A stretch of 64,000 bases of DNA from a virus, in the IMG/VR virus record IMGVR_UViG_3300020061_000004, positions 32,001 through 96,000 of that record; one strand, 5' to 3'. The translations under genes were made by a program, and so were the position numbers. Positions 6,001 to 52,004 of the stretch are shown piece after piece (positions within the stretch are counted from its first letter, which is position 1; every line of letters begins with the position of its first letter). Below the pieces are notes generated by a model. It did not search any database. It saw only the letters and a list, made by a program, of their open reading frames with translations, and was not told the DNA's origin.

Positions 6001-9000
6001 GACATTCCTGAAAGATTATCTAATATTTCTCCAGTTTCAGCATCTCTAAATACTGTTCCTTGTGGTGTATTACTAAACTGTACTCCTACACTTCCTAGAG
6101 CTTCATCAGCACTGGTGAATACTTTATCTTCATTAGATTCCTGATTGAAATTAGAAGTAGCCTTAGCATCTCTTATTTCTTGAGGAGACACCATTCCTAA
6201 TGGATTTCCTTGGTCATCTGTATCTACTTGTGTAAGACCACCAAAGATTCCCTTACTAGGAAGAGTAATAGGAGAAGGAGCTATCATTTCCTGCACTGGT
6301 ATACTAGGAGCAGGCATTTGAAATACTCCACTAGTAAGAGGTACTACAGAAGATATCTCAGGGTTATATACAATATTAATACCCTTTTGCTTTTCTACTG
6401 AGGTGATGTTTCCTTTGCCGTCATAAGCAATCTGAAATGGAAGAATTCCAAGTCTCTTTGGTTTTACACCAAATTCATTCTGGAAAAGGTTAGAATATGC
6501 ACTAAGTTGATTAGTATGATTCTGTCTCTTAGTCATCTTACCATTGTAAGAATCATCATACTTACCAAAATCCTTAGCTGTCTTTATATCATAAATACTA
6601 TAATTACCATCCTTATCTACCGATAGAATATCTACTTCACCAGCTATTTTACTTACTGGATCAAATAATACTATATTATTACTAATAAACTTCTCACCTC
6701 TATCTTCAATAGTTTTCTTAATTTCAGTGAGTGCTTTTATGATAGAAGTATGAGCTTCATCAGAAATACCAGCAGGTTTAGTAGCAGTTTTACCAGAAAA
6801 GAAATCTCTTACAATTCCATCTACTGTACTACCAGCAACTCTTGCATTTTCGTATAGAGAAGAGTCACCATCAAAATCATTAGGAATAACATTTGTTACT
6901 CTTCTATAGTTCTCTCCTCTAATTATATAAAACTGCTGATCTGCTGTTCTTCCTTGTACTTCTGTCTGACTAGCTATAACAGCAGCCATAATATCTTGAG
7001 AAGTCTGAAGATTTGCACCACTACTTACAGCATTCTGATTAGCAGGATTATTTCTTTCAGTACCTCCAGCTGCCTTATAGGCACTAGATATCTCTTTATA
7101 GTTAGGAGTGATACGAAGAGTACCATTCTTAAATACATTAGTAGTTGTTGCACTACTTAAAGCATTACCCGCAGCATCAGCATTAGTTTCAGAATCTTTT
7201 GCAATATTTTCACGGAACTGACTAGCAGAGAAATTAACTTTAAGTGCAGCAAATGCTGTAGCTTTATCAATTTGTTCCTGAGTCATTCCTTTCTTAACAG
7301 TACCTACTTTAACTGCTTCCTTATTGAAGAGATCAATCATCTCTCCTAAGTTCTTAATAGTAGCTACTCTTGTAGGAGCAATATATAAGGTATATCCTGC
7401 TTTAGTGTCCTTATCGTATATTTCCATACGAATTGCACCAATAGGGCTTACAGAAAGATTAAAGTTCTTTTTACCATCTGGATCAGATATAAACAGTTGA
7501 TTATCAATACCTTCATTAAAAGTATCATTATATGCTTTTGCTTCAGCATTAGGATATTTATAATAAACAACTTGATCACCAATTAATAACTGTCCATCTG
7601 CTAATTCCTTAGTAGATTCTGCAAAGTTAGTTTCTCCTGAAAGTTGTGCTCTATCTTTAAGAGAGTTAAACAATGCACTTTCAGCTTGTTCTCCTAACTG
7701 TCCAGGAGTAAGAGCTACATAATGTAAAGCTCCATCTGGTGTTTGAGTAACCCCAACATATCTTGTTCCAAGAGCATGTATTCTAGTAACGTCTCCAGCA
7801 ATTTTAGCTTTTAATTCTTTAGAATCAGCATTGTTATCATAAAAAGCAGGACTATAGATAAACTCCATAATATCAGACTTCACATATCCACCAATATCAT
7901 TATTATATACACGAGGTATAGAGATAATTACTTGTGACTGAACATCCTGTCCATTAGAACCTTTAAATACATGAGTAGTATTCTCTAATTCACTATATAA
8001 AGGTCTTTCTCCACCCGGTGGGATCAGATCAAGTTCCCCATATGTAAGTTTTACATCTACAAGTTTTTCAAGCTGTTCTTCTGATAGAGTAATAGCTTGA
8101 TTATTATTGTTCTTAAACTGTATAGCAAAATAGTTCTTCAGAGCAACCATAGCATTATACTGTTCCAAATCAGCAGCATATTGTGCAGCAGGTCTGGAAG
8201 TAAAATTAGCGTATTGTTGAGCAGTAAGTTTATCTAATGTAACTAATTGATTATTAACATTAAATAATAGTCTATCAGGAGTAGCAAGTTTTGCCACTTC
8301 ATCTCCAGTATGTAAGATAGACATATCTATAGGAGAAAGAGAAGAATATACTCCAGGATAACCTTTTAATTGTGTATATGTATTATTAGCTTTTTGATCA
8401 TTATAGGCTTGTTGACGTTCAGGAGAAAGAGGCTGTATTCTGATAGTCATATCAGCTTTAAACTCAGCTGATGTTTCATACTGTATAGCTTCTTGGAAAG
8501 GAACTTTTAAATCAGCAGGAACAAGAGCTTTATTAAAATAATCTTCTGTACGTAAAGCTTCTCTACCAGCTCCAGCACCAGCAGGTTGAGGCTGAGGAGG
8601 ACTTGGTGGTACAATAGGTTTAGAAGCCTTCTGGGAAGCAGCATTTGCAGCAGTGTTAAGAGTTACAGCCTGTGCTCTAATAGCAGCTACATTACTATTA
8701 TGTATATAGTAGTTCTTACCATCTGAGCTTTTAACTTGTGTATACTCTGAAAGGTTGACATTAGGATTTGTCATCTTAAGATCATCAACTGTAGATAGTT
8801 CATCTACATTATCAAGATCATCAGAAGCAGCTTTATCCTTTCCATCAATAACATTTAATAGAGCATTATAATATGTTCTTTTCTTCTCATCATCTAATAC
8901 TTGTGTAGACTCAGTTAATTCTCCTTGCCCTTGTTGTTGTGATGCAGCAAGACCAGTTCCTGTAGATAAACCATTAGCTTGAGCAGCCTGCTGAGCAACT

Positions 9001-31869: not shown

Positions 31870-32435
31870 TAGTTACAACATTTTTCGAGTTTCTTAATTA
31901 ATCGATCTGTCAACTTAGATGCCAATGCATAAAACTCAGTAGCTTTCTTTTCATTCTGATCTGCAATAAGATGACATCCTTCTACAAGCATGTGTATCTC
32001 AGCAAGATCATTCATTATTGTTAAGTCCTCTTTTCTTGAACAATCTGAAGCTCCTATCTTTTCATAGATAAAAGTAATTCGTTGTTCTAAGATATTAGTA
32101 CGACAAAAGCTCTTAAGTTTATAATTGAGATTGTATGGACAGATTTTATACTTTAGTCGATATACTCCATCAGGAAGATCAATAAGACAATCAGCATTCA
32201 ATAAGTCTGTAAGTCCTAAAGTATTGGAATTGAAGGTATTAACCTGATTTGCAACAATATTAACTAAGAAATACTTATTGTATCCCGGCATTAATACTTC
32301 AAGTAAGGGTCTATCAGGTTGTCCTATATATACAGAGCTATCTATGAAAACAAGAGTCTTAGGATTTCCCGTAGAAATTATTTCGAAATCTATAATATTT
32401 TCTCTAAATCCCTTCATAAATAAAAAAAGGAGCAA
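31869..32435 (-). CDS. Putative tail hub protein
   Basis: LPDGVYRLKY segment and gene position; true start may be the downstream MKGF. Confidence 0.5.
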   Translation of the reverse strand: MLLFLFMKGFRENIIDFEIISTGNPKTLVFIDSSVYIGQPDRPLLEVLMPGYNKYFLVNIVANQVNTFNSNTLGLTDLLNADCLIDLPDGVYRLKYKICPYNLNYKLKSFCRTNILEQRITFIYEKIGASDCSRKEDLTIMNDLAEIHMLVEGCHLIADQNEKKATEFYALASKLTDRLIKKLEKCCN

Positions 32436-41872: not shown

Positions 41873-43945
41873 TTACCTGGATTGTTTATTATGCTTGAAG
41901 GTGAATGTACTCTGTACCTTTCCAAATCCTTGTCCTATCCTTACAAAGGGTGAAGCAAGCATTGGATCATGTACCTTCTTAGGCATTAGAGGATCAAAGG
42001 GTTGTTCAGCTATATTACTAACAGGATAGTATTTATCCAGATGCTTAGCAAATGCTAAAGCATGCCTGAAGGCCACTATACGGTCATAGTTACCATCCTT
42101 TGGATCATACTTGATAATCTCCATTAGAAGTACAGGGTCCAGAATTCGGGTTATACCAAGCTTGTAGATGGGTTCTCTTGTAACAGGATGTGTTCCTATC
42201 TGTATCTGTTCCTTACAATATTCTATCATTAAGGACATACAGTAGTTAATATTAGCTACTGTTGGTGATAAGCCATATACTTTACCACCTTGGTTAGCTC
42301 TAGTCTTAGGATTTATTTCTCTTGCAATATTAAATCCCTGTCCAAGCATATGTCCTTTATTCTTACGCTCAAAATACTGGATGAATGTACCTGCTGCATT
42401 TTCTGGAAAGCATGTAGCATTATAATAATCCATTAACATCTCAACATCTTCATGCCAAGAATCCATTCTCTCAGGACGAGATGCCAAAGATGCCACCACC
42501 ATATTCTGATAGGTTTCACCAGATACATCTGTCATTCTCTTATAGATGAAGAGTGTCCCTAGAGAGTCAGACCAATCTGATATATCATTATTATACGGGT
42601 CGGCTCCAGCTACATAAAGCCCCATAGGAGCATTTGTAATAGGTTCTTCCCATATTACTATAGGGCAATCTGTGCCTAAGTTTCCTTTTGTTGGAAACTC
42701 TGAGATTGGTAGATCAGTAGGATCAGCATTTTTCTGAATTACCCTACCATTAGAATCTCTATATAGACGTACATAACGTCCCTTAATTTGATTAGTTTGT
42801 AAGTATTCCAGATGCTGTCTAGCTGCTTCCAAAGGGAACGGATTACTACTACCTGATAGAAAGCATTCCTCTGGTGTCAGAGGATGATACATTACAGCCT
42901 TTAAATACTCTTGTTTATCTGGGTCTTTAGACTTGATGAGTCTTTCTTCTTCTATCTTTAAGCGAGCTTTCTCTTTATCTGATACCTTAATAGGAATTGT
43001 CTTAGCTTCTAATCCAATTCCTGTAAATCCTTTTGATAAGAGATAGTCATATAGATTGGAATCAGTCTTACAATCCATTCGGTAAAGACCAGACATGAAT
43101 AAGCCAGTCTTCTTTCCTGTCTCTTCATTTACTACTTCTTGGAAGTTATTAGCTGTGGGATGTTCAAATACACGTTTAGCATCATTACCTTTCTCAAAAC
43201 TACCACCAGTACCCACTAGGATTGGAACACAACGCCAGCCGTATGGTGATAGGAACGCTGGTTTATGTGCTTCAAATACTGGTGAAAATAGATATTTACC
43301 AATTTCATCATATACTGCTGCCTTTGCTGTTGTACCAGCCGCGGCTTCTGTATTTGTACCTTCTTCTGCATTACGAATCATTATATAACTCCACACATGG
43401 TCTTCATTATTCTTGTCTTTAAAACCAAGACGTAATGTTGGCTTCCTCCAGTCTTTATCTAGTTTAGGGATAGCCAATCCTTGCCACATATGTTTCCATC
43501 CAAAATCAATCTTCTCTGTAAGAAGCTTCATGTCTGCTCCATTACCCGCTACAAGTACACTCTGTGAATTCTCATATAATATAGCTGTCATACCAATATG
43601 AGAAGCTTCCCATTCTGATTTACCTCCCTGACGTAATCCCACTTCTATATATCCCTTCTGAGCTACACGAGCTTTCTCAAAATACTCAGCACGTTCCCAT
43701 TCATTATCTCTAAGATCAGGTAGGGATGGTGTACGTACAATGTTTCCCCACTTATCCTTCTTATCCACAATAATATGCCAGTGATTCAAATGCCCATATA
43801 AAATTCCAGGAATATGAACACCACCAATAGTAATACCCCCCATGCACTTTTCAATTTCCCACTCTACAAGAGAAGTGAAATCATCAGTACCGGGAGGTGG
43901 CAAAGTTTTTATATTTCTAAAAAACTCAGTTGTTTTAATCTGCAT
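41873..43945 (-). CDS. terL: Terminase large subunit
   Basis: Walker A-like RQGGKS, Walker B VYDEIG, VGTGG coupling motif, nuclease AGADPY and NYDR. Confidence 0.92.
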   Translation of the reverse strand: MQIKTTEFFRNIKTLPPPGTDDFTSLVEWEIEKCMGGITIGGVHIPGILYGHLNHWHIIVDKKDKWGNIVRTPSLPDLRDNEWERAEYFEKARVAQKGYIEVGLRQGGKSEWEASHIGMTAILYENSQSVLVAGNGADMKLLTEKIDFGWKHMWQGLAIPKLDKDWRKPTLRLGFKDKNNEDHVWSYIMIRNAEEGTNTEAAAGTTAKAAVYDEIGKYLFSPVFEAHKPAFLSPYGWRCVPILVGTGGSFEKGNDAKRVFEHPTANNFQEVVNEETGKKTGLFMSGLYRMDCKTDSNLYDYLLSKGFTGIGLEAKTIPIKVSDKEKARLKIEEERLIKSKDPDKQEYLKAVMYHPLTPEECFLSGSSNPFPLEAARQHLEYLQTNQIKGRYVRLYRDSNGRVIQKNADPTDLPISEFPTKGNLGTDCPIVIWEEPITNAPMGLYVAGADPYNNDISDWSDSLGTLFIYKRMTDVSGETYQNMVVASLASRPERMDSWHEDVEMLMDYYNATCFPENAAGTFIQYFERKNKGHMLGQGFNIAREINPKTRANQGGKVYGLSPTVANINYCMSLMIEYCKEQIQIGTHPVTREPIYKLGITRILDPVLLMEIIKYDPKDGNYDRIVAFRHALAFAKHLDKYYPVSNIAEQPFDPLMPKKVHDPMLASPFVRIGQGFGKVQSTFTFKHNKQSR

Positions 43946-44258
43946 CTCTCTGCATTCTATGAGGAATATTAGTATTCCCTTTTGCTTCAGCCTTAGTTGC
44001 TTCTTTTTCTCTTAATTTATCTATCACTTCCAAAAGAAGAAGATAGTTCTTCATGGTATCTTGTACAGATTTAATCTGTTGTTCAATAGAAGCCACTACT
44101 GTACGCATCATACCACCATTCTTCGTCTCCTTATAGTCCATCCTATCTGTTAGTTGATCTATAGGATTGATGTCAATGTAATTACGCCATTTCTTTAATT
44201 GCTCTTCAGCCCAATCTAAATCTGATGTTATGTAACTATTAACTTTCTTTGCTGCCAT
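43935..44258 (-). CDS. Small helical protein upstream of TerL (possible small terminase)
   Basis: 107 aa, overlaps the TerL start; function inferred from position only. Confidence 0.45.
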   Translation of the reverse strand: MAAKKVNSYITSDLDWAEEQLKKWRNYIDINPIDQLTDRMDYKETKNGGMMRTVVASIEQQIKSVQDTMKNYLLLLEVIDKLREKEATKAEAKGNTNIPHRMQRDAD

Positions 44259-44724
44259 CTATTTGGTTTTGAGCACTAGGTTGGATTTGAACCAACGGTT
44301 GTACGGTTTTGCAGACCGGTGCCTTGGACCCCTCAGCCACTAGTGCAGGTTTCTGTGCGAAATCTAAATACTTTGATATTAAAATCTTATTCTTAAGAAC
44401 GTAATCAAATATCTTCTCCACTATATATCCTGTTATATATGCTCTTGTCTCACCTAGTTTCTCTACTTCAGTCTTCTCGATGATGTAGTCTACAATGTGG
44501 GACACTTCATGTACAATGCAGTTGGGAGTGAGTCCATGTAACTGATAGAAGATGAAGTATTTATGATCAGGTGTATCTAGTGATAAACCATAATAGCCTC
44601 CTTCTGCAAGAGGCTCCATACCATACTTCTTAAGATATCTTGGTACTATCTTTTCAATCTCTTCATCTATAATAATAGTGAGGTTGAACTCAAAGATAGG
44701 TATCTTTATAGTTGTCTTATACAT
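44239..44724 (-). CDS. HExxH (zincin-like) protein whose 3' end contains tRNA-Cys
   Basis: IVHEVSHIVD...ETRAY motif; frame stays open through the tRNA. Confidence 0.65.
   Translation of the reverse strand: MYKTTIKIPIFEFNLTIIIDEEIEKIVPRYLKKYGMEPLAEGGYYGLSLDTPDHKYFIFYQLHGLTPNCIVHEVSHIVDYIIEKTEVEKLGETRAYITGYIVEKIFDYVLKNKILISKYLDFAQKPALVAEGSKAPVCKTVQPLVQIQPSAQNQIDGSKES
44272..44346 (-). tRNA. trnC: tRNA-Cys (GCA)
   Basis: GCACTAG/CTAGTGC acceptor, loop CTGCAAA, T arm GTTGG TTCAAAT CCAAC, U73. Confidence 0.9.
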
Positions 44725-44734
44725 AGAAGATATT

Positions 44735-44809
44735 TGGAAGCGGGAGCGGGATTTGAACCCGCGACCTTTGAGTTATGAGCCCAACGAGCTACCTCTGCTC
44801 TACCCCGCT
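44735..44809 (-). tRNA. trnM: tRNA-Met (CAT)
   Basis: AGCGGGG/TCCCGCT acceptor, loop CTCATAA, encoded CCA. Confidence 0.9.
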
Positions 44810-44815
44810 ATATTA

Positions 44816-45043
44816 TTAATCTTCTATTTGTGTTGCCTTATCAGCTAGATCAGTCTCAAGTTCATCACGATAGTTTTCAAACTTCTTGAGAAGTTCTTCA
44901 TCACTCCAGTTATAATTACCTGTTTGGGGGCGCATCACATGCACAATATGCTGTGAGATACTATACTGGGGAAACAACTCTACTATCTCTACGAAATGAT
45001 GAAAAATCTGTTGCTTGATCTGAGTTTTTTGTTTATTGCTCAT
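44816..45043 (-). CDS. Hypothetical protein
   Basis: 75 aa, overlapping neighbour in the operon. Confidence 0.6.
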   Translation of the reverse strand: MSNKQKTQIKQQIFHHFVEIVELFPQYSISQHIVHVMRPQTGNYNWSDEELLKKFENYRDELETDLADKATQIED

Positions 45044-45461
45044 TGGTTTTTGTTTTGTATGCTGTCCATTTAAGTTCCATATTGATGTTGTTATTCTGAT
45101 TAAAGGCTAACAACTCTTTATCCTTGCAAGTACAATTTGATAAGTTATCAAAATTGCAACAATCAATTCCACAATTTGCTTCTAGTGAAGCTGTCTTTCT
45201 AGTGATTGTACATCCACACATAATACAATGTTCATCAAATCTATCTGTCTTATATCCAGTAGATACTGCATTTGAACTATTGAATGGACACGTTGCACAT
45301 ATAAATCTTCTTCTTGCTATTTCTGCTTGTTCATCTTCAGGAAGGATATCATATTGCAATTTCACTTGATTCACTATCCCCTCCACTATCAAGTCTGCAT
45401 TCTGTACTACTGTCGGCAGTAGTTTTACATATTCTATTAGTCCTTTTAGCATAAGCTTCAT
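45033..45461 (-). CDS. Cys-rich putative Zn-binding protein
   Basis: RRFICATCPF...HCIMCGC...NCGIDCC. Confidence 0.65.
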   Translation of the reverse strand: MKLMLKGLIEYVKLLPTVVQNADLIVEGIVNQVKLQYDILPEDEQAEIARRRFICATCPFNSSNAVSTGYKTDRFDEHCIMCGCTITRKTASLEANCGIDCCNFDNLSNCTCKDKELLAFNQNNNINMELKWTAYKTKTNEQ

Positions 45462-45792
45462 AATACTGTGTTGCTAATGTATTCCTCTGTATTAAGGCTT
45501 TTCTAAGTTTGCCATAGTTTACTTCGAGGAGCAGGTCTTTTGTTGATTCTTTATACCTGATAGACTTCTTTATATTCCTAATCTTATTAATTGTGGACTT
45601 TATAAAGTAGTCTATCTTACGTTTACTTGTTGTTATTGTTCCTAAGTACTTGATACTCACCGATGTAGACTCAAGGCCACTTAGTTTTTTCCTTACTTCT
45701 TTCCAATAAAAATCATTCACACTATCAACAATCTTCTCTTCTATTCCCATCTCACGGGATACTATCTTGCTGATTACTTGAATAGTTTTCAT
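45349..45792 (-). CDS. IHF/HU-like DNA-binding protein
   Basis: 147 aa. ISKIVSREMGI..VSIKYLGTI HU-like pattern. Confidence 0.6.
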   Translation of the reverse strand: MKTIQVISKIVSREMGIEEKIVDSVNDFYWKEVRKKLSGLESTSVSIKYLGTITTSKRKIDYFIKSTINKIRNIKKSIRYKESTKDLLLEVNYGKLRKALIQRNTLATQYYEAYAKRTNRICKTTADSSTECRLDSGGDSESSEIAI

Positions 45793-46133
45793 TAGCTATT
45801 ATCTATTTTAATCAGTACACCAATCACAGGATTAACAGGAAAGTCTAAGTCTGCATTAAGTGTGTAGTCTTTAGAATCTACAGGACGCACTAACATTCCA
45901 AACTTCTTAAGTTTACTCATTGTATTCTTCAGACTATCCTCTGTTTTGAGAATATTTGAAGAAAGAATAAGGTCTTTAGTTTTTCTATTAATCCTATATA
46001 CCATGAAATAAGCAAGGACTGTGAGTTCAGTATCAGAAAGTCGTATATTCTTGAGTAAACAAAAGATACCAATTACTTTCTTTGCCTGTTCCACCTTGCT
46101 ATTGGTTTTAAGTTTGATTTTTACAAGCTGCAT
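45792..46133 (-). CDS. Winged-HTH (RepL-like) protein
   Basis: LSDTELTVL...LKNTMSKLKKFGML; start moved to MQLVK (46133), downstream of the promoter. Confidence 0.5.
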   Translation of the reverse strand: MQLVKIKLKTNSKVEQAKKVIGIFCLLKNIRLSDTELTVLAYFMVYRINRKTKDLILSSNILKTEDSLKNTMSKLKKFGMLVRPVDSKDYTLNADLDFPVNPVIGVLIKIDNS

Positions 46134-46149
46134 TTCCTTAATTTCTACA

Positions 46150-46181
46150 CAAAGATAAGTAATTGATTTCAATTAACCAAA
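46150..46181 (-). promoter_or_regulatory. Bacteroidota-type promoter (HTH-IHF-terminase operon)
   Basis: TTTG-N20-TATCTTTG. Confidence 0.8.
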
Positions 46182-46190
46182 TCTTTTTCA

Positions 46191-46676
46191 CTAATTATGA
46201 TTATTTGCTGTAATTAAGTCTCTATATCTCTCATTTACAATCTTAGCCTGAGCTGATGAAGGTATTCTTCCTGATTCTAATAGGGAAAGGATACTTCTGA
46301 AGTAAGGAGCAGGGGATATTTGTAATATCTTCTTACAACGCTTCTTATATTCCTCTATAACTCCTTGTATTCTAGTGGTATCCTTTGATTTATTCTTCTT
46401 TACTCTTCTGGTTGATGAAGGTTTCTTCATGAAAGAAGCTATTGTTCTTTTCTCATGTGCTTTTGAATGACAATCTGCACAAAGAGTAACTAAAGCTTTC
46501 AAAGGATATTCCCAAGGACTCTTATCTTTGATGTAATAGAGATGATGAACATGCAACATACAATTTGTAGCCTTACAATTCCTGCATGTATACTTATCAC
46601 GGTTTAAAACCTGAACCCTAACTACATCAACCCAGCGTGTATCAAGTAATAATATTTTATATTCTTCTTTTGTCAT
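46191..46676 (-). CDS. HNH endonuclease
   Basis: RDKYTCRNC..LHVHH..LVTLCADCH; start moved to MTKEEY because the ORF-track start is at the terminator. Confidence 0.85.
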   Translation of the reverse strand: MTKEEYKILLLDTRWVDVVRVQVLNRDKYTCRNCKATNCMLHVHHLYYIKDKSPWEYPLKALVTLCADCHSKAHEKRTIASFMKKPSSTRRVKKNKSKDTTRIQGVIEEYKKRCKKILQISPAPYFRSILSLLESGRIPSSAQAKIVNERYRDLITANNHN

Positions 46677-46758
46677 AATATTCTCTGTTGAGTATGCAAT
46701 ACTACGGAAAATTATTGACATTATGCCACTTTTTTCAATATTTATTTTTATATAATAT

Positions 46759-46783
46759 AAAAACCCCTCACTTGGAGGGGCTT
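46759..46783 (-). terminator. Intrinsic terminator
   Basis: AAGCCCCTC CAAGT GAGGGGTTTTT. Confidence 0.8.
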
Positions 46784-46804
46784 GCAACAAAAGAAGGTAG
46801 CAGA

Positions 46805-46951
46805 TTAGACTTTTTTAGCATCTGCTTCGACAGTAGAAGCTACTTCTTCAACCTTTTCAATAATCGGCTCGATCTTTTCCTTGTTATTACGGTAAATTAA
46901 TATACCTGCAATGAACAAACCAAGAGATACAATAGCAACGAGTGGAACCAT
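46805..46951 (-). CDS. Small single-TM membrane protein (48 aa, not in ORF track)
   Basis: MVPLVAIVSLGLFIAGILIYRNNKEKIEPIIEKVEEVASTVEADAKKV; own promoter and terminator. Confidence 0.75.
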   Translation of the reverse strand: MVPLVAIVSLGLFIAGILIYRNNKEKIEPIIEKVEEVASTVEADAKKV

Positions 46952-46969
46952 ATGTTTCAAATTTAGATA

Positions 46970-47001
46970 CAAAGATAATAACTTCTTAGGAAATTACCAA
47001 A
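46970..47001 (-). promoter_or_regulatory. Bacteroidota-type promoter
   Basis: TTTG-N20-TATCTTTG upstream of the 48-aa membrane ORF. Confidence 0.8.
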
Positions 47002-47075
47002 TGGCACGGGAGGCTTGATTCGAACAAACATCAAAGGTTTTGGAGACCTCTATTCTACCATTGAACTACTCCCGT
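47002..47075 (-). tRNA. trnW: tRNA-Trp (CCA)
   Basis: ACGGGAG/CTCCCGT, loop CTCCAAA, encoded CCA. Confidence 0.9.
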
Positions 47076-47076
47076 A

Positions 47077-47151
47077 TGGGGTGAAAGGACGGTAATGATC
47101 CGTCTTCTATGCCTTCACAGGGCACCGCATCACCTTAATGCTTCAGACACC
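47077..47151 (-). tRNA. trnH: tRNA-His (GTG), atypical acceptor stem
   Basis: GTGCC CTGTGAA GGCAT arm, G-1:C73, CCA; three pyrimidine mismatches in the acceptor stem. Confidence 0.75.
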
Positions 47152-47161
47152 ATGTATTATG

Positions 47162-47232
47162 TACCCGATCATGGGAACGATCCACATTCTCCTGCTTCAA
47201 AGGCAGGCATAATACCTTTATACTACTCGGGT
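47162..47232 (-). tRNA. trnQ: tRNA-Gln (TTG)
   Basis: CCTGC CTTTGAA GCAGG arm; ACCCGA/TCGGGT acceptor. Confidence 0.8.
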
Positions 47233-47237
47233 ATAAG

Positions 47238-47308
47238 TTGGGGAAGATTGAATCGAACAACCACCAAAGGTGTCAGAGACCTTTGTACTACCATTATACG
47301 ATTCCCCA
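47238..47308 (-). tRNA. trnQ: tRNA-Gln (CTG)
   Basis: TGGGGAA/TTCCCCA; loop CTCTGAC. Confidence 0.88.
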
Positions 47309-47354
47309 AAATGAAGGTTCCTTACTCAATGAAGTATGCCTACAACCCAAAATG

Positions 47355-47427
47355 TGGTACAGGTTAGTTATGATCTAACTCCTCGGGATTTTCAGTCCCG
47401 CGCTTCTACCAAGTTAGCTTCTGTACC
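47355..47427 (-). tRNA. trnF: tRNA-Phe (GAA)
   Basis: GGTACAG/CTGTACC; CGGGA CTGAAAA TCCCG. Confidence 0.88.
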
Positions 47428-47432
47428 ATAAG

Positions 47433-47506
47433 AGCCCTAGCCGGAACTCGAAGCCGGTCTGTTCCGCATTACAAGTGCGGCGCTGCACCATATCAGCATC
47501 TCGGGC
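47433..47506 (-). tRNA. trnT: tRNA-Thr (TGT)
   Basis: CCGCA CTTGTAA TGCGG; GCCC/GGGC acceptor. Confidence 0.85.
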
Positions 47507-47555
47507 AGTTGACATTTGATTTTCACATAAAACAAAGTTTCCAAACAAAACATCG

Positions 47556-47656
47556 CTAATGGGGTACGATTCGAACGTACATGCAGAGGTTATTAATTCC
47601 CTATATCTGCACCACCGAGAAAAGGAGGCGAGTCTGCCAAGTTCCAACACCCATTA
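47556..47656 (-). ncRNA. 101-nt tRNA-like RNA with very long variable arm, isotype undetermined
   Basis: TAATGGG/CCCATTA acceptor, GTACG TTCGAAT CGTAC T arm, TGCAGA...TCTGCA long arm, non-canonical loop TTTTCTC. Confidence 0.7.
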
Positions 47657-47661
47657 ATCTG

Positions 47662-47733
47662 CGGGGAAGGTATGGATCGAACATACGACCTGAGAGTTAA
47701 CAGCTCCCTGCTCTACCGCTGAGCTACTTCCCC
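47662..47733 (-). tRNA. trnN: tRNA-Asn (GTT)
   Basis: GGGGAAG/CTTCCCC; loop CTGTTAA. Confidence 0.92.
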
Positions 47734-47790
47734 AAAATAGGGTGTAAGGGTTCTTCCTTACACAGGGTGCGCTTACCCCACTTCCTATTG

Positions 47791-47866
47791 CCGGCAATAC
47801 GGGATTTGAACCCGTGGTCTTCCCGTAGACAGCGGGACAGGGACAACCAGACTCCCCTAAATGCCG
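47791..47866 (-). tRNA. trnD: tRNA-Asp (GTC)
   Basis: TCCCG CTGTCTA CGGGA; G73. Confidence 0.85.
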
Positions 47867-47874
47867 AATAAAAG

Positions 47875-47945
47875 TCTAGCTTGTCTGAATCGAACAGCTC
47901 TTCATGCTTCCAAGGCACGGGTGCTACCATCACACCCCAAACTAG
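47875..47945 (-). tRNA. trnP: tRNA-Pro (TGG)
   Basis: CTAGTTT/AAGCTAG; loop CTTGGAA. Confidence 0.85.
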
Positions 47946-47977
47946 AAATAAAAAACCCTCCTTTAAGGGGAGGGCTT
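47946..47977 (-). terminator. Attenuator terminator in front of tRNA block 1
   Basis: AAGCCCTCC CCTTAAA GGAGGG TTTTTTATTT, between the promoter and the first tRNA. Confidence 0.85.
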
Positions 47978-48001
47978 GTATGAACACGCTTGAAAATTTA
48001 G

Positions 48002-48082
48002 TTATCGTGATATAATATAGCCTCTCCCAACGATTGTATCGGGTTGAAAATTAAAGGTATTATTATGCCAATTCTGAATCAT
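48002..48082 (-). CDS. Leader peptide 1 (26 aa) MIQNWHNNTFNFQPDTIVGRGYIISR
   Basis: ATG 4 nt after the -7 box; residues 3-16 are all amino acids of the downstream tRNAs. Confidence 0.85.
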   Translation of the reverse strand: MIQNWHNNTFNFQPDTIVGRGYIISR

Positions 48083-48086
48083 ACAG

Positions 48087-48118
48087 CAAAGATAAGAAGA
48101 ATATTTGATATTACCAAA
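48087..48118 (-). promoter_or_regulatory. Bacteroidota-type promoter of tRNA operon 1
   Basis: TTTG-N20-TATCTTTG. Confidence 0.85.
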
Positions 48119-48137
48119 TTTCTTATAAAAATAAATG

Positions 48138-48220
48138 TGGGAGCTGATGGAGTTGAACCACCCGAGTCCTAAGACAGCAGATTTACAGTCTGCCCCGCTA
48201 CCCCTACGGTATAAACTCCC
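48138..48220 (-). tRNA. trnY: tRNA-Tyr (GTA)
   Basis: GCAGA CTGTAAA TCTGC; long variable arm. Confidence 0.92.
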
Positions 48221-48306
48221 AAATAGCTACCCTCGGTATTTCCGAGACCAGCTTACAATATAGGGTCACTCACTTAAGAGGCTCACTAGTTTCCTAGTTA
48301 CTTTAG

Positions 48307-48393
48307 AGGAAGGTGTGGGATTTGAACCCACGGAACTTTTACATCCTCCGGTTTTCAAGACCGGTGCAATCAGCCAGACTCTGCCAACCTTCC
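48307..48393 (-). tRNA. trnS: tRNA-Ser (TGA)
   Basis: GGAAGGT/ACCTTCC; loop CTTGAAA; long variable arm. Confidence 0.92.
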
Positions 48394-48467
48394 TAAAGCT
48401 CACCCCGTAGGTGAGCAGCGCAATTAAGGCTTTGCGATGCCATTACAGCCACCCTTTGGGCAGTGTG

Positions 48468-48552
48468 AGGAGAGTAGAAGATTCGAACTTCTGGGGCTTT
48501 AACACCCAACACTTTAGCAAAGTGTTACGATAAACCTCTCTGACAACTCTCC
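48468..48552 (-). tRNA. trnS: tRNA-Ser (GCT)
   Basis: GGAGAGT/ACTCTCC; loop TTGCTAA. Confidence 0.9.
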
Positions 48553-48557
48553 TTATG

Positions 48558-48637
48558 TATCCCTAACATGATTTGAACATGCACCCCGAAGGAGCAGATT
48601 TTAAGTCTGCCGCGTCTACCAGTTTCGCCATAGAGAT
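48558..48637 (-). tRNA. trnL: tRNA-Leu (TAA)
   Basis: GCAGA CTTAAAA TCTGC; TGGTAGAC D-loop. Confidence 0.9.
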
Positions 48638-48643
48638 AAGTTG

Positions 48644-48728
48644 TAGGTATAGTAAGAGTCGAACTTACACGCCCATTACAGGCATCAGTTTCTAAGACTG
48701 ACGTGTCTACCAATTCCACCATATACCC
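48644..48728 (-). tRNA. trnL: tRNA-Leu (TAG)
   Basis: TCAGT CTTAGAA ACTGA; long variable arm. Confidence 0.92.
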
Positions 48729-48730
48729 AT

Positions 48731-48766
48731 AAAATAAAAACCCCCGCTATCCGAATTAGCAGGGGA
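48731..48766 (-). terminator. Attenuator terminator in front of tRNA block 2
   Basis: CCCCTGCTA ATTCGGA TAGCGGGGG TTTTTATTTT. Confidence 0.85.
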
Positions 48767-48808
48767 GTGACGATATTGTCTTTTACGAACGCTTCTTTAT
48801 CACATACT

Positions 48809-48871
48809 TTACCCCTTACTATCGAGTGATAGATAACTTAAGGAGAGCAAATATGAGTTTAAATTCTTCAT
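48809..48871 (-). CDS. Leader peptide 2 (20 aa) MKNLNSYLLSLSYLSLDSKG
   Basis: AATTAAA-ATG start; Leu/Ser/Tyr run matches the downstream Leu, Leu, Ser, Ser, Tyr tRNAs. An in-frame upstream ATG also exists at 48937. Confidence 0.85.
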   Translation of the reverse strand: MKNLNSYLLSLSYLSLDSKG

Positions 48872-48945
48872 TTTAATTAGGGGTCTCAGGAAAGATATAG
48901 AAACAATCGTGTGTACAATAAATCTATATCTATCCATCAACACAA

Positions 48946-48977
48946 CAAAGGTAATACAAATAATTGATATTACCAAA
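48946..48977 (-). promoter_or_regulatory. Bacteroidota-type promoter of tRNA operon 2
   Basis: TTTG-N20-TACCTTTG. Confidence 0.85.
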
Positions 48978-48985
48978 TTTAAGTG

Positions 48986-49058
48986 TAGTAATGATGGGAG
49001 TTGAACCCACTACCCCGGAGGTATCAGCTCCGTACTCTAACCGTTGAGCTACACTACT
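48986..49058 (-). tRNA. trnI: tRNA-Ile (GAT)
   Basis: CGGAG CTGATAC CTCCG. Confidence 0.9.
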
Positions 49059-49060
49059 AG

Positions 49061-49132
49061 TGGACTGAGATGGAATTGAACCATCGACTTGCACATTATG
49101 AGTGTGCTGCTCTACCCCTGAGCTATCAGTCC
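49061..49132 (-). tRNA. tRNA with CAT anticodon, probably Ile2 (lysidine) type
   Basis: GGACTGA/TCAGTCC, A73, loop CTCATAA; leader 3 contains ATA and no internal ATG. Confidence 0.85.
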
Positions 49133-49139
49133 ATAAAAG

Positions 49140-49211
49140 TACTCTGTGACGGTTACGATCCGTCTTCCACGCTTTGAAGGAGCGTTATCCTAGCCACTAG
49201 ACGAACAGAGC
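49140..49211 (-). tRNA. trnE: tRNA-Glu (TTC)
   Basis: GCTCTGTTCGTCTAG Glu-like body; ACGCT CCTTCAA AGCGT (C33). Confidence 0.85.
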
Positions 49212-49218
49212 ATATATG

Positions 49219-49290
49219 AGCACCAGTGGGTAATCGAAACCCAATCCGCGCATTGGAAGTGCGCTATAATAGCCGTTATACGACTGATGC
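49219..49290 (-). tRNA. trnG: tRNA-Gly (TCC)
   Basis: GCGCA CTTCCAA TGCGC; U73. Confidence 0.88.
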
Positions 49291-49292
49291 AT

Positions 49293-49367
49293 TGGTAGAG
49301 ATACCAAGAATCAAACTTGGGTCTAGGGATTAGAAGGCCCTCGTTCTATTCATTGAACTACATCTCT
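49293..49367 (-). tRNA. trnR: tRNA-Arg (TCT)
   Basis: Loop CTTCTAA; encoded CCA. Confidence 0.88.
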
Positions 49368-49368
49368 A

Positions 49369-49444
49369 TGGAGGACACAGAAAGAGTCAAACTTTCGTTC
49401 CCTGCTTCGTAGGCAGGAGTTCTATTCAGCTGAACTATGCGTCC
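49369..49444 (-). tRNA. trnR: tRNA-Arg (ACG)
   Basis: CCTGC CTACGAA GCAGG; encoded CCA. Confidence 0.88.
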
Positions 49445-49515
49445 TAATACTGGGCCAGAGTATACAGGTTACTGTCCCTCTATGAATTTCACATAGTTAC
49501 CCCAGTAGAATACTG

Positions 49516-49588
49516 TCTCCCCGTTCGGAATCGAACCGAACCCCACGGTTTAAAAGACCGTTGCCTACAACCAGTTTGCTACAAGGAG
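49516..49588 (-). tRNA. trnK: tRNA-Lys (TTT)
   Basis: ACGGT CTTTTAA ACCGT; T arm TTCGG TTCGATT CCGAA. Confidence 0.88.
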
Positions 49589-49593
49589 TTTGT

Positions 49594-49633
49594 AAAAACA
49601 AAAACCCGAAGCTGCTAGTTGCGGCTCCGGGCT
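49594..49633 (-). terminator. Attenuator terminator in front of tRNA block 3
   Basis: CCCGGAGCCGC AACTA GCAGCTTCGGG TTTTTGTTTTT. Confidence 0.85.
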
Positions 49634-49655
49634 CTGTTAAAAGAAATTGTTAGTA

Positions 49656-49757
49656 TTATCCTAAATCAATATCTTGTAGACATATAGCTCCGGAGCCAGG
49701 TTTTCTTCCTGCCTCGCGAATAATTTCTATGCCACCGATATTGATAACTAAATTCAT
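49656..49757 (-). CDS. Leader peptide 3 (33 aa) MNLVINIGGIEIIREAGRKPGSGAICLQDIDLG
   Basis: ATG 4 nt after the -7 box; Ile/Gly/Glu/Arg/Lys run matches the downstream tRNAs. Confidence 0.85.
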   Translation of the reverse strand: MNLVINIGGIEIIREAGRKPGSGAICLQDIDLG

Positions 49758-49761
49758 AATG

Positions 49762-49793
49762 CAAAGATATGTTAAATATTTGAAACTACCAAA
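49762..49793 (-). promoter_or_regulatory. Bacteroidota-type promoter of tRNA operon 3
   Basis: TTTG-N20-TATCTTTG. Confidence 0.85.
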
Positions 49794-50026
49794 TCTTGTT
49801 TTAAAAAGGCTATTACTTCTTTAAGTTCTTGTTCAGGAGTAGATGGCCTTATCATAAATTCTCTTTCCCGATTTGTTACCATATATCCAAAAACATTTGA
49901 GGATGCTAGGAAACCCTTTGAAATATTAAGAAATGATGGAAGGTGTGTTCCAGACATAAATCCATAATCTCCTCTACTATGAGAGAGTCCTGTCTCCTTA
50001 TCTATATAAGCTAATACAGCATTCAT
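49772..50026 (-). CDS. Hypothetical protein
   Basis: 84 aa; coupled stop/start. Confidence 0.6.
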   Translation of the reverse strand: MNAVLAYIDKETGLSHSRGDYGFMSGTHLPSFLNISKGFLASSNVFGYMVTNREREFMIRPSTPEQELKEVIAFLKQDLVVSNI

Positions 50027-50310
50027 TATACAAAGATTAAACTACACAATGCTTTTGATATCCATACAATCTCACCTTTAACTGGTTCTTGATCAATCTC
50101 AATAGATATATGAGTGCCATCAATCCCTGCAAACTCTCCATTATCTAAGGGTGTCATATTCCAATGGCTTATCTCACGTTTATCATTGAGGATGGTATAA
50201 TAGCTACCATCCTCTTTTATTAATCTTATGCCGGGACAGAGATATTTCTTTGGAATATATCTATCCCTCCAATCTCCCTGTATCATCAGAGTCACTCGTG
50301 TGGGTCTCAT
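50026..50310 (-). CDS. Hypothetical protein
   Basis: 94 aa in the operon. Confidence 0.6.
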   Translation of the reverse strand: MRPTRVTLMIQGDWRDRYIPKKYLCPGIRLIKEDGSYYTILNDKREISHWNMTPLDNGEFAGIDGTHISIEIDQEPVKGEIVWISKALCSLIFV

Positions 50311-50334
50311 AACTAAAAAAAATTCGTTCGTACG

Positions 50335-50736
50335 TTAACTCAAATTATCACTATCCATACCAAGCCCGAAATCATCAATCGAATCTGGTTTGATGATAGT
50401 GTCATTAGACGCGCCTTCTCCAGATTTTTCTGTTATGAATCCGTGTATACTATACCCTGTAGCGGCTGTATAGATACGCTGAAACTCACTATAAGGCAAT
50501 GCCACTACAAAACTATCCCCGTCCTTAAAACGCACCGTTGTCGATTTTTTATCCTGGCTACGATTGAATCGAGAGATATCATTGATATCAAACGTCATAG
50601 GAGCATAGTCATAAAAGAACTCTGGTTGGAAGTTGTTCTGCTCTTCACCACTCAGAAGCTTCTTTAGTTGAAGTTCCTGATCGTCCTCTTTCTTAACACG
50701 CATCTCTGTCCATCTCACCTGCATTTCTACTATCAT
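50335..50736 (-). CDS. Hypothetical protein
   Basis: 133 aa in the operon. Confidence 0.65.
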   Translation of the reverse strand: MIVEMQVRWTEMRVKKEDDQELQLKKLLSGEEQNNFQPEFFYDYAPMTFDINDISRFNRSQDKKSTTVRFKDGDSFVVALPYSEFQRIYTAATGYSIHGFITEKSGEGASNDTIIKPDSIDDFGLGMDSDNLS

Positions 50737-50737
50737 A

Positions 50738-50953
50738 TTAATATACTTCTCCTATAAGTTTGTTTATTTTCTTCCTATCACCATTTGTTTTAGTTACAAT
50801 CTCCACTAAGGTTTCAAACCTGGAGCTTCTCAATACTAGAGGGGAAGTTCTATTAGAGAATAACAAGGGATAATGATCCCTTTCTACGGCTGCCCATTCC
50901 ATCTTATAGGCATTGTAGTTAAATACCCAATTGTGTAAATTACTTAGTTCCAT
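50738..50953 (-). CDS. Hypothetical phage protein
   Basis: 71 aa; WVFNYNAY..W.A segment. Confidence 0.65.
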   Translation of the reverse strand: MELSNLHNWVFNYNAYKMEWAAVERDHYPLLFSNRTSPLVLRSSRFETLVEIVTKTNGDRKKINKLIGEVY

Positions 50954-51119
50954 TTATATCTACTTTTGTTGTTGCTTTTAAATTCTCTACTGTCTTTATA
51001 TCTGCATCAGCTAACTCAGGGTGTTCTCGTAATGCTTTCTGCATTGCTTCTTCCCATTGTGCTGCTGTAAAGTTAACTCTTTTTTGTTTAGTAAACAAAT
51101 ATTTTTGCTTAATTTTCAT
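50940..51119 (-). CDS. Hypothetical protein (59 aa, not in ORF track)
   Basis: MKIKQKYLFTKQKRVNFTAAQWEEAM...; fills the operon gap. Confidence 0.55.
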   Translation of the reverse strand: MKIKQKYLFTKQKRVNFTAAQWEEAMQKALREHPELADADIKTVENLKATTKVDINGTK

Positions 51120-51270
51120 GTTTATATTTTTCGTTTAAATTATCTACAAACTCCTTTAATATCTTCTTAGGTATTTTAGGCCCATATTTTATATATAGTG
51201 CCCCCATACCTTCTAGCCATTCTGCTGTTAGTTTGGCTTCTTCAATACTTAGCCAAGATGTTTCATCCAT
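51109..51270 (-). CDS. Hypothetical protein (53 aa, not in ORF track)
   Basis: MDETSWLSIEEAKLTAEWLEG...; overlaps both neighbours. Confidence 0.55.
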   Translation of the reverse strand: MDETSWLSIEEAKLTAEWLEGMGALYIKYGPKIPKKILKEFVDNLNEKYKHEN

Positions 51271-52004
51271 TTTACTTCTTTTATAATTTCCCTCCAGCGT
51301 GTAGCTAAGAGGTTTGAATAAATACTATCATCAAGTCCATAGTTCCCAAGAGACCATCCATCATTACACTCTACCAATACTGTCTCTCCTGTAGATAGAA
51401 CACCAACATCCAGACTATATCCAGAAGGAGCTTCTGTATAAGCTGCTATCATCTTCATCACCTTCTCCTTATTGGGAGCTATAAAAGGATCACCAAGATA
51501 GTGCTTCATTCCCTTTAATACTCCATTGATGATATAGCATCTATATTCAGAAACGAAGTCTACCACTTCACTATAGAATATCTTTGTATCCTGAGGAATC
51601 TTACTGAAGTAAATAAGAGCATCTGTTGGTGTTTTAACTACTCCTGCTATAAACTCCTTAGCTTTTCCATCTGGCTTTACAAATAGAGGCCATTTACGCT
51701 GCTCACTATACCAAGTAATATCCTCCATTTTACCATTTCCTACTTCTCTTTTAAGGAACTCTTCTTTCCATAATTGGTAGGGAACATTAATAGCCTGCTT
51801 TGGTGGTAGTCCTATCTTCTCGAAATACTTATTGGTGGTTTCTATATAAGCTACAAGAATTACCCAAGGAGCTACAGGTACTTCATCAATATCCTCAAAG
51901 AATACTATATTAGCTTGCTTCCCTTTAAACCCCATATAGGCAGATACCATCCAGTCTGCGATTGGGAAGTTATTAAGACTCTCTATGTATATTTTATAAT
52001 CCAT
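51249..52004 (-). CDS. ATP-grasp domain protein (DUF4343 / R2K-like)
   Basis: LFVKP, SEVVDFVSEYRCY, YSLDVGV and LVECNDGWSLGNYG. Confidence 0.8.
   Translation of the reverse strand: MDYKIYIESLNNFPIADWMVSAYMGFKGKQANIVFFEDIDEVPVAPWVILVAYIETTNKYFEKIGLPPKQAINVPYQLWKEEFLKREVGNGKMEDITWYSEQRKWPLFVKPDGKAKEFIAGVVKTPTDALIYFSKIPQDTKIFYSEVVDFVSEYRCYIINGVLKGMKHYLGDPFIAPNKEKVMKMIAAYTEAPSGYSLDVGVLSTGETVLVECNDGWSLGNYGLDDSIYSNLLATRWREIIKEVKWMKHLG

Follow-up and report, generated by a model that had tools for sequence, protein, structure and literature searches.

Leader-peptide attenuators of enterobacteria respond either to several amino acids, as in the operons ilvGMEDA (Ile/Val/Leu) and thr (Thr/Ile), or to a single one, as in trp, his, leu, and pheA, and a Phe-rich leader peptide also precedes pheST in Escherichia coli. 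For the carriage of transfer RNA (tRNA) genes by phages, codon-usage compensation, the replacement of degraded host tRNAs, and the escape from anticodon nucleases have been proposed. Here, we describe an element that touches on both subjects. It is located on the minus strand of a 64,000-nucleotide (nt) stretch of virus DNA (in the following called the window; positions 32,001 to 96,000 of the single, 123,280-bp IMG/VR record IMGVR_UViG_3300020061_000004), comprises a promoter motif, a short leader open reading frame (ORF) and an intrinsic terminator, and lies directly upstream of seven tRNA genes. Judging from sequence comparisons and modeled RNA folds, we assume with a probability of about 0.77 that this element is a ribosome-mediated (leader-peptide) transcription attenuator of the trp/ilv type that gates the seven phage tRNA genes. 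The phage would thereby probably make the tRNAs of this block only when ribosomes run short of them.

The general mechanism of attenuation in the leaders of amino-acid operons is laid out in an earlier account (PMC1183508). In common with the enterobacterial attenuators, the element in the window has a promoter-proximal short ORF rich in regulatory codons, would sense more than one amino acid, and contains mutually exclusive antiterminator and terminator helices, between which a stalled ribosome is predicted to choose the antiterminator. In contrast to them, it is found in a phage, would regulate tRNAs instead of enzymes, probably acts on a leaderless transcript from a Bacteroidota-type promoter, shares no sequence similarity with them, and is predicted to sense five amino acids in the window and up to about ten in a related 146,724-nt record (G001). 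Since the regulated genes are tRNAs, the product would act directly on the sensor. Leaderless leader peptides translated from a 5′-terminal AUG, for example that of cysS, are described for Deinococcus deserti (PMC4007540). The cysS and pheST leaders resemble the present element in that a part of the decoding machinery, and not biosynthesis, is under attenuator control; however, they precede protein genes instead of tRNA genes, respond to one amino acid each, and do not belong to phages. T-boxes also sense tRNA supply and control terminator read-through upstream of translation-related genes, but they bind one uncharged tRNA directly and without translation, whereas the element in the window is an ORF with many different codons. 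The nearest functional parallel that we found is the long accessory tRNA array (trn operon) of Anabaena sp. PCC 7120, which is reported to be normally silent and to become expressed when translation is impaired by stress (PMC8421152, PMC10272220). This array differs in being bacterial and in being reportedly controlled by the transcriptional repressor TrcR and not by a leader peptide. A search of the full-text literature, which left subscription journals, old scans, and supplements uncovered, yielded no account of leader-peptide attenuation of phage tRNA genes, nor did it return anything on a leader peptide for tRNA-Phe genes. The mechanism itself is classical attenuation; new are its use on tRNA genes, in a phage, and with at least five amino acids per sensor. 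If the assignment is true, attenuation would extend to RNA products with feedback on the very sensor that controls them, to sensors for 5–10 amino acids at once, and to Bacteroidota-type leaderless transcripts.

A first-pass annotation made from the letters of the window had called the leader ORF, its sensor codons, the terminator, and the seven tRNAs, and all of them were found exactly where it had placed them (Table 1). The leader encodes the peptide MNLVINIGGIEIIREAGRKPGSGAICLQDIDLG, the codons 5–19 of which are ATC AAT ATC GGT GGC ATA GAA ATT ATT CGC GAG GCA GGA AGA AAA (I N I G G I E I I R E A G R K). In the six-frame translation of the genome, 15-residue stretches with at least 13 residues out of K/R/G/E/I occur at four loci including this one (14 of 107,920 stretches). 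The leader scored 4.86 against its own tRNA block, which ranked first among 24 block sets. Downstream of the ORF, a GC-rich stem of 8 bp, formed by CCCGGAGC (49631..49624) and GCTTCGGG (49612..49605), is followed by TTTTTGTTTTT (49604..49594), and this stem plus UUUUUGUUUUU ends 6 nt short of tRNA-Lys, which starts at 49588. A consensus terminator scan listed the terminators of two further units of the genome (units 1 and 2) but not the hairpin at 49631..49594, since its loop exceeds the limit of the scan. The fold of the region has a z-score of −4.41, with none of 200 shuffles being as stable. Within the ORF, the strand GGCTCCGGAGCT (49697..49686; segment 2) is complementary to AGCCCGGAGCC (49633..49623) in the terminator; the 11 bp with one bulge that had been noted for this pairing can be read as 8 + 3 bp around one bulged A.

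Relatives were collected with a 690-aa protein (41873..43945) as bait, which is probably the terminase by its position beside the portal gene and gave no Pfam hit. Searches with this protein yielded five loci, and a profile of four sequences extended the set to 53 viral and 80 metagenome loci, many of which carry tRNA arrays. Additionally, a loose pattern scan of the antiterminator/terminator core returned at least 118 stretches, four of them beside tRNA arrays (three known contigs and G001); the remaining ones are taken as chance matches. The four homologous leaders are those of the window, of the IMG/VR contigs L001 (identical to L003 in this region; MQSTIIIVGRGAERTIKCGSGVSMYYDDI) and L002 (MSLLVIIAGRGAERIVKCGSGGSIC), and of G001 (MYNLNMIVDRMIGANEKSAPGFLLAVM). 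L001 and L002, whose 690-aa proteins are 73 and 64% identical to that of the window, have the same three-block array, with a third block that ends in tRNA-Val(TAC) and leaders that hold Val codons. The G001 leader shares the GGCTCCGG(G) / CCCGGAGCC / GCTTCGGG core and precedes a block in the order Lys-TTT, Lys-CTT, Val-TAC, Arg-CCT, Arg-TCT, Asn, CAT, CAT, Gly-TCC, Gly-GCC, Glu, Asp, Ile-TAT, Ile-GAT, and Ala-TGC, with ORFs inserted among the tRNAs; in line with this, the G001 leader, which reads ..LNMIVDRMIGANEK.., contains N, M, V, D, and A beyond I, R, G, E, and K. That Ala and Val are the only amino acids lacking a tRNA had been noted for the window; in the whole genome, too, a tRNA scan detected no tRNA-Ala or tRNA-Val. 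The prediction attached to this observation, namely that blocks of relatives contain these tRNAs, came true for Val-TAC in L001 (=L003), L002, and G001, and for Ala-TGC in G001 only.

An ATG-to-stop ORF of 25–33 codons, segment 2, and the terminator are kept in all four homologs. When the four sequences are aligned, base pairing is retained in 36 of 36 cells of the terminator, and both sides have changed in three of its nine pairs; two of 500 column shuffles gave covariation as high, and slid controls reached at most 61% pairing. For the 8-bp antiterminator, pairing is found in 32 of 32 cells, and the single pair in which both sides have changed shares this compensatory change with the terminator. 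Column 77 of the alignment, located in the terminator 5′ arm, has a G in the window and in G001 and a U in both L001 and L002, and its partners co-change, namely from C to A in segment 2 and from C to G in the terminator 3′ arm. One nucleotide thus changes together with its partners in both helices, as a two-state element predicts. Furthermore, GGCTCCGG is read as S-A-P-G in G001 and as G-S-G otherwise; because the frame differs in G001, the constraint acts on the RNA and not on the peptide. The codons of the leader are kept in kind in the homologs and shift together with the tRNA content of the block, which bears out the conservation anticipated for them.

The effect of a translating ribosome was modeled by moving an unpairable footprint of 30 nt codon by codon along the leader and calculating minimum free energy (MFE) folds, which represent thermodynamics only and no kinetics. 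For the free RNA, or with the ribosome at the stop codon, the 1:2 hairpin and the terminator form. With the P-site at codons 9–13 in the window, 5–14 in L001, and 5–13 in L002 the terminator is lost and segment 2 lies on the terminator arm; in G001 it is lost with the P-site at codons 3–14 except 5. As soon as the ribosome is farther downstream than these opening codons, the terminator re-forms. When the sequence ahead of the terminator was dinucleotide-shuffled, 1 of 100 shuffles for the window, 1 of 100 for L002, and 0 of 100 for G001 did as well; for L001, where 4 of 100 shuffles did as well and 45 of 100 showed any opening, the control is not informative, as the helix detection caught only four outer pairs. 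In thermodynamic terms, the switch is plausible.

In the proposed mechanism, transcription would begin at the Bacteroidota-type promoter and the 33-codon leader would be translated, probably from a leaderless 5′ AUG. A fast ribosome passing the Ile, Gly, Glu, Arg, and Lys codons would leave segment 2 (GGCUCCGG) locked in the 1:2 hairpin or covered by the ribosome itself; with segment 2 unavailable, the terminator would form and transcription would end 6 nt before tRNA-Lys. Slow decoding of the central sensor codons, possibly due to scarce, uncharged, or cleaved tRNAs, would result in a stalled ribosome that holds segment 1, whereupon segment 2 would pair with the terminator 5′ arm (CCGGAGCC) and RNA polymerase would enter the tRNA genes. 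Because the products are tRNAs that read the sensor codons, the circuit would be a negative feedback on decoding capacity, with the phage gauging the decoding of exactly the block codons and supplying tRNAs on demand. A broader and, in our opinion, rather doubtful extension is that phage tRNA blocks are inducible in general, each by its own multi-codon gauge of decoding speed, so that a given tRNA set would be transcribed only upon limitation of just those aminoacyl-tRNAs, and that such a counter-defense or homeostasis circuit, with host anticodon nucleases or tRNA degradation among its triggers, is widespread among large phages.

Table 1. Positions of the features of the attenuator candidate in the window, of its counterpart in phage phi38:1, and excerpts of leaders from more distant relatives.
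Feature	Positions	Strand	Details
Promoter, Bacteroidota-type	49762..49793	minus	TTTG 49793..49790, 20-nt spacer, TATCTTTG 49769..49762
Leader ORF	49656..49757	minus	33 codons + stop (TAA 49658..49656), ATG at 49757
Sensor stretch, codons 5–19 (INIGGIEIIREAGRK)	49701..49745	minus	13 of 15 residues in K/R/G/E/I
1:2 hairpin, long, inside ORF	49665..49745	minus	MFE and centroid folds; predicted to sequester segment 2 absent a stalled ribosome
Segment 2, antiterminator strand GGCTCCGGAGCT	49686..49697	minus	Pairs with terminator 5′ arm (sequence and constrained folds)
Intrinsic terminator	49594..49633	minus	5′ arm within 49633..49623, 3′ arm 49612..49605, U-run 49604..49594
tRNA block, presumably regulated	48985..49588	minus	Lys-TTT, 70-nt spacer, Arg-ACG, Arg-TCT, Gly-TCC, Glu-TTC, CAT (probably Ile2), Ile-GAT
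phi38:1 leader/terminator/tRNA element	L278 2572-2839	minus strand of locus	Inside gp066
Leader, L009			..HSYRPQQLLQ.. before Pro, Gln, His, Arg, Leu, Tyr
Leader, L009			..RNNWFNNAAAFTTTDCG.. before Gly, Asp, Asn, Trp, Thr, Arg, Phe, Cys
Leader, L013			MMMNNWFNIIDTAFATRNCGKVG.. before Ala, Asp, Asn, Thr, Arg, Met, Lys, Ile, Met, Phe, Val, Gly, Cys
Leader, L038			..FQHTRFWFTQPT.. before Pro, Thr, Phe, Gln, Gln, His, Arg, Trp

The correspondence between leader and tRNA content lends further support to the proposed attenuator. The layout is present three times in the tRNA array of the genome: in addition to the unit described above, a Leu/Ser/Tyr-rich leader precedes a block of Leu, Leu, Ser, Ser, and Tyr, and QNWHNNTFNFQPDT precedes a block of Pro, Asp, Asn, Thr, Phe, Gln, Gln, His, and Trp. 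Stretches as rich as these two sensors occur at three loci and one locus, respectively, in the six-frame translation of the genome. When each of the three leaders was scored against each of the three blocks, the diagonal values were 4.86, 5.27, and 5.05, and all off-diagonal values were at most 1.65. This analysis was extended to 24 blocks that are preceded by a terminator and were delimited automatically in the window and its relatives. Their own-block scores sum up to 86.7 compared to 45.8 ± 5.2 (maximum 69.4) after permutation, and the observed sum was reached by none of 20000 permutations. Antisense controls scored lower in 20 of the 24 units, tied in 2, and scored higher in 4. Six units rank poorly, most clearly L009-5006, L039, L057-18428, and L068-4330, while the ranks of L004 and L038-5776 are less low. 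Some tRNAs escape ARAGORN, which removes units and blurs block sets. Relatives whose 690-aa protein is 40–50% identical to that of the window have other arrangements of the arrays, and their leaders change with them (Table 1).

The first-pass annotation had claimed that the match reaches the level of isoacceptors, and Arg supports this claim. In units with tRNA-Arg, the family of the Arg codons corresponds to the family of the Arg anticodon in 13 of 13 cases, with the sensor stretch delimited by eye: six units have Arg-ACG only and CGN codons, four have Arg-TCT or Arg-CCT only and AGR codons, and three have both anticodon and both codon families. Among the close homologs, three leaders contain CGC and AGA and precede blocks with Arg-ACG and Arg-TCT, and the G001 leader contains AGA only and precedes Arg-CCT and Arg-TCT. 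Arg codons of either family also appear in the GC-rich tails of numerous leaders, and some leaders have them although the block lacks a tRNA-Arg. Ala codons occur in three leaders whose blocks lack tRNA-Ala. For the CAT tRNA of the window, an Ile2 identity had been proposed on the basis of the ATA codon in the leader. In line with this proposal, the three leaders with a single CAT tRNA in the block and without Ile-TAT contain ATA and no internal ATG, and that of G001, with Ile-TAT and two CAT tRNAs, contains ATA and two internal ATG. The tRNA itself is slightly nearer to Ile tRNAs (identity of 0.69–0.71 to Ile-TAT and Ile-GAT compared to 0.66 to the best Met-CAT, among the tRNAs compared), a weak difference; the Ile2 identity is favored, but only weakly supported. 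Leader content could be of use in deciding between Ile2 and Met for such ambiguous CAT tRNAs and in locating tRNA genes that programs miss.

Several observations weigh against an attenuator of this kind or restrict its scope. The permutation test takes the relatives as independent and ignores their shared ancestry, and covariation of the antiterminator comes down to one column in four sequences, with 104 of 500 shuffles being as high. AAT (twice), GTT, and GCA in the sensor region of the window leader have no tRNA in the block; these Asn, Val, and Ala codons look like remnants of a larger block. GGT and GGC would need extended wobble by Gly-TCC instead of being its standard-wobble cognates, and GTC in the leaders of relatives is not a standard-wobble cognate of the encoded tRNAs either. 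For ribosomes with the P-site at codons 14–19, and hence with Glu15, Ala16, Gly17, Arg18, Lys19, or Pro20 in the A-site, the folds predict that segment 2 is covered and termination favored. With Ala16 to Lys19 in the A-site the ribosome is too near to segment 2, and therefore no antiterminating stall is expected there; in these models, only part of the putative sensor codons would be able to act as sensors. Unit 2 of the genome shows no clean switch in MFE folds. The initiation context varies as well, with distances from the −7 box to the ATG of 4 nt in the window, 27 nt in L001, and 17 nt in L002, and no promoter motif within 70 nt of the G001 leader. Finally, the end of an upstream 84-codon ORF (49772..50026) lies 15 nt ahead of the leader ATG; transcripts of this ORF would also reach the terminator, which may therefore have a second, plain role.

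Some of these points lend themselves to other explanations. The leader might be translated and its codons might matter, but with another output, i.e., a stall might promote termination, control processing of the precursor by RNases or its stability, or do no more than time the synthesis of the tRNAs in the course of the infection cycle. The predicted termination with the P-site at codons 14–19 and the missing simple switch of unit 2 would fit such an output. However, a ribosome at central or early codons frees segment 2 and removes the MFE terminator in all four homologs and in Cellulophaga phage phi38:1, and a hairpin followed by a U-run is a canonical intrinsic terminator, so that we consider this explanation unlikely. 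It is even less probable that each cassette of promoter, mini-ORF, and terminator is a gene for a small peptide and that the tRNAs arise from leak-through or from other promoters. The annotation of the phi38:1 leader region as a hypothetical protein (gp066) and recurring Gly-rich motifs in the C-terminal halves of the peptides speak for a peptide product, but the peptide sequence is not conserved, with composition alone being kept and varying with the tRNA set, and the conserved GGCTCCGG is read in two frames. Moreover, the distance from the leader stop to the first tRNA is 55–67 nt in 22 of 28 units, and a scan of the window detected no other promoter motif between the terminator and the first tRNA.

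The two remaining explanations do without sensing by a translating ribosome, and both appear highly improbable. An ordinary terminator of the upstream protein operon, combined with a chance ORF, would agree with the 84-codon ORF whose transcripts run into the hairpin. A promoter motif lies between this ORF and the leader, though, and the match in composition is rare genome-wide, occurs three times in the genome, and is conserved in relatives, where it follows the tRNA content; the switch was reproduced by 1 of 100 shuffled leaders. By similarly long odds, the RNA might be an untranslated sensor to which tRNAs bind directly via codon-like triplets, as in a T-box, an idea which gains from the position ahead of genes of the translation apparatus and from triplets that are complementary to the encoded anticodons. 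Against this, the triplets form a single unbroken frame from ATG to stop in all four homologs, and the leader alignments contain no specifier loop or T-box-like conserved sequence. A search of 43000..52000 with Rfam at E-values up to 1 also revealed no T-box or other leader family, but tRNA-type matches and a few sub-threshold plastid- and tymovirus-like matches on the tRNA genes.

Initiation of the leader was analyzed with the motif TTTG / TAnnTTTG, the promoter consensus of Bacteroidota described for Bacteroides. TTTG-N17-21-TAnnTTTG occurs 14 times in the window compared to 2.09 expected copies, and none of 100 shuffles reached 14. An extended form, TTTGGTA.T.TC, is found in four copies of the promoter at 49793, 48977, 48118, and 47001, the second of which begins right after the seven-tRNA block. 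Between the −7 box and the leader ATG there are 4 nt (CATT). Because the ATG follows the −7 box so closely, the messenger RNA is probably leaderless or nearly so. Among 15 leaders with the full motif within 70 nt, 10 have the ATG 4–5 nt past the −7 box, which suggests that transcripts start at or beside the AUG. Other leaders start 15–27 nt from the box or follow another ORF or tRNA without a recognizable promoter (12 of 28).

A cultured example of the arrangement is available. Cellulophaga phages have a tRNA-Lys similar to that of the window, and in phi38:1 (NC_021796.1) the leader MKTIMNIATDIRTKGVKLLGRSRVL lies within the annotated hypothetical gene gp066. Downstream of this leader are a terminator and the tRNAs Lys, Ile, Gly, CAT, Asp, Thr, Val, Arg-TCT, and others. 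The ribosome-scan folds of this leader gave the same three states as those of the window leader. RNA-seq data of phi38:1 infection have been published, and the passages of that article dealing with tRNA and codons do not mention the element (PMC5335546). With reporters in this cultured phage, the old question of the purpose of phage tRNAs would become directly testable. Between terminator and tRNA-Lys, phi38:1 contains an uncalled tRNA-like stretch.

The window also encodes a P22-like portal protein and an R2K ATP-grasp gene, and its DNA is present in soil metagenome runs. A blastn search of 48900..50400 against the INPHARED phages matched tRNA genes only (15 records, none covering at least 80% of the query). 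ARAGORN called 22 tRNA genes, all on the minus strand, and Rfam adds one missed by ARAGORN at 47150..47080 (minus), with GTG in the anticodon loop (His). The ends of the 70-nt spacer between tRNA-Lys and Arg(ACG) (49445-49514, minus) are complementary and, by eye, resemble an acceptor stem, and neither ARAGORN nor Rfam called a tRNA in it; in L002 the gap between Lys and Arg measures 8 nt. Block 1 of the window contains another tRNA-like stretch (~47556-47656, minus), whose acceptor and T arms are perfect and whose extra arm is very long. It is conserved in L001 (~6196-6294) and L002 (6191-6286), and in L002 ARAGORN calls it a 96-nt 'tRNA-Asp(gtc)'.

Leader 2 of the genome (48809..48937, minus) comprises 42 codons if it is started at the ATG 8 nt past the −7 box. 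Its Leu/Ser/Tyr run is located C-terminally, and the antiterminator strand can also be bound by a competing upstream CCCCU. A different setting is seen in front of lone tRNA-Glu genes in relatives, where a promoter-like motif and a Glu-rich ORF abutting the tRNA occur without a terminator hairpin (L009 ~5500-5586, L013 ~2550-2634, L064 ~630-711, L068 ~3860-3943, and L128 ~30-112); this arrangement may be a different design of the same idea. Between the tRNA genes of relatives, ORFs resembling HNH endonucleases (CxxC...CHRxxH motifs) split blocks that are contiguous elsewhere (L064 2915-3220, L068 ~2640-2970, and several gaps of L277, i.e., G001). The fourth extended promoter copy, TTTGGTAAT.TC...TATCTTTG at 47001..46970 (minus), is located after the last tRNA (Trp). 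It is followed by a 48-codon ORF (46951..46805, minus) with a hydrophobic N-terminus and an 18-nt 5′ leader, and then by a terminator at 46783..46761.

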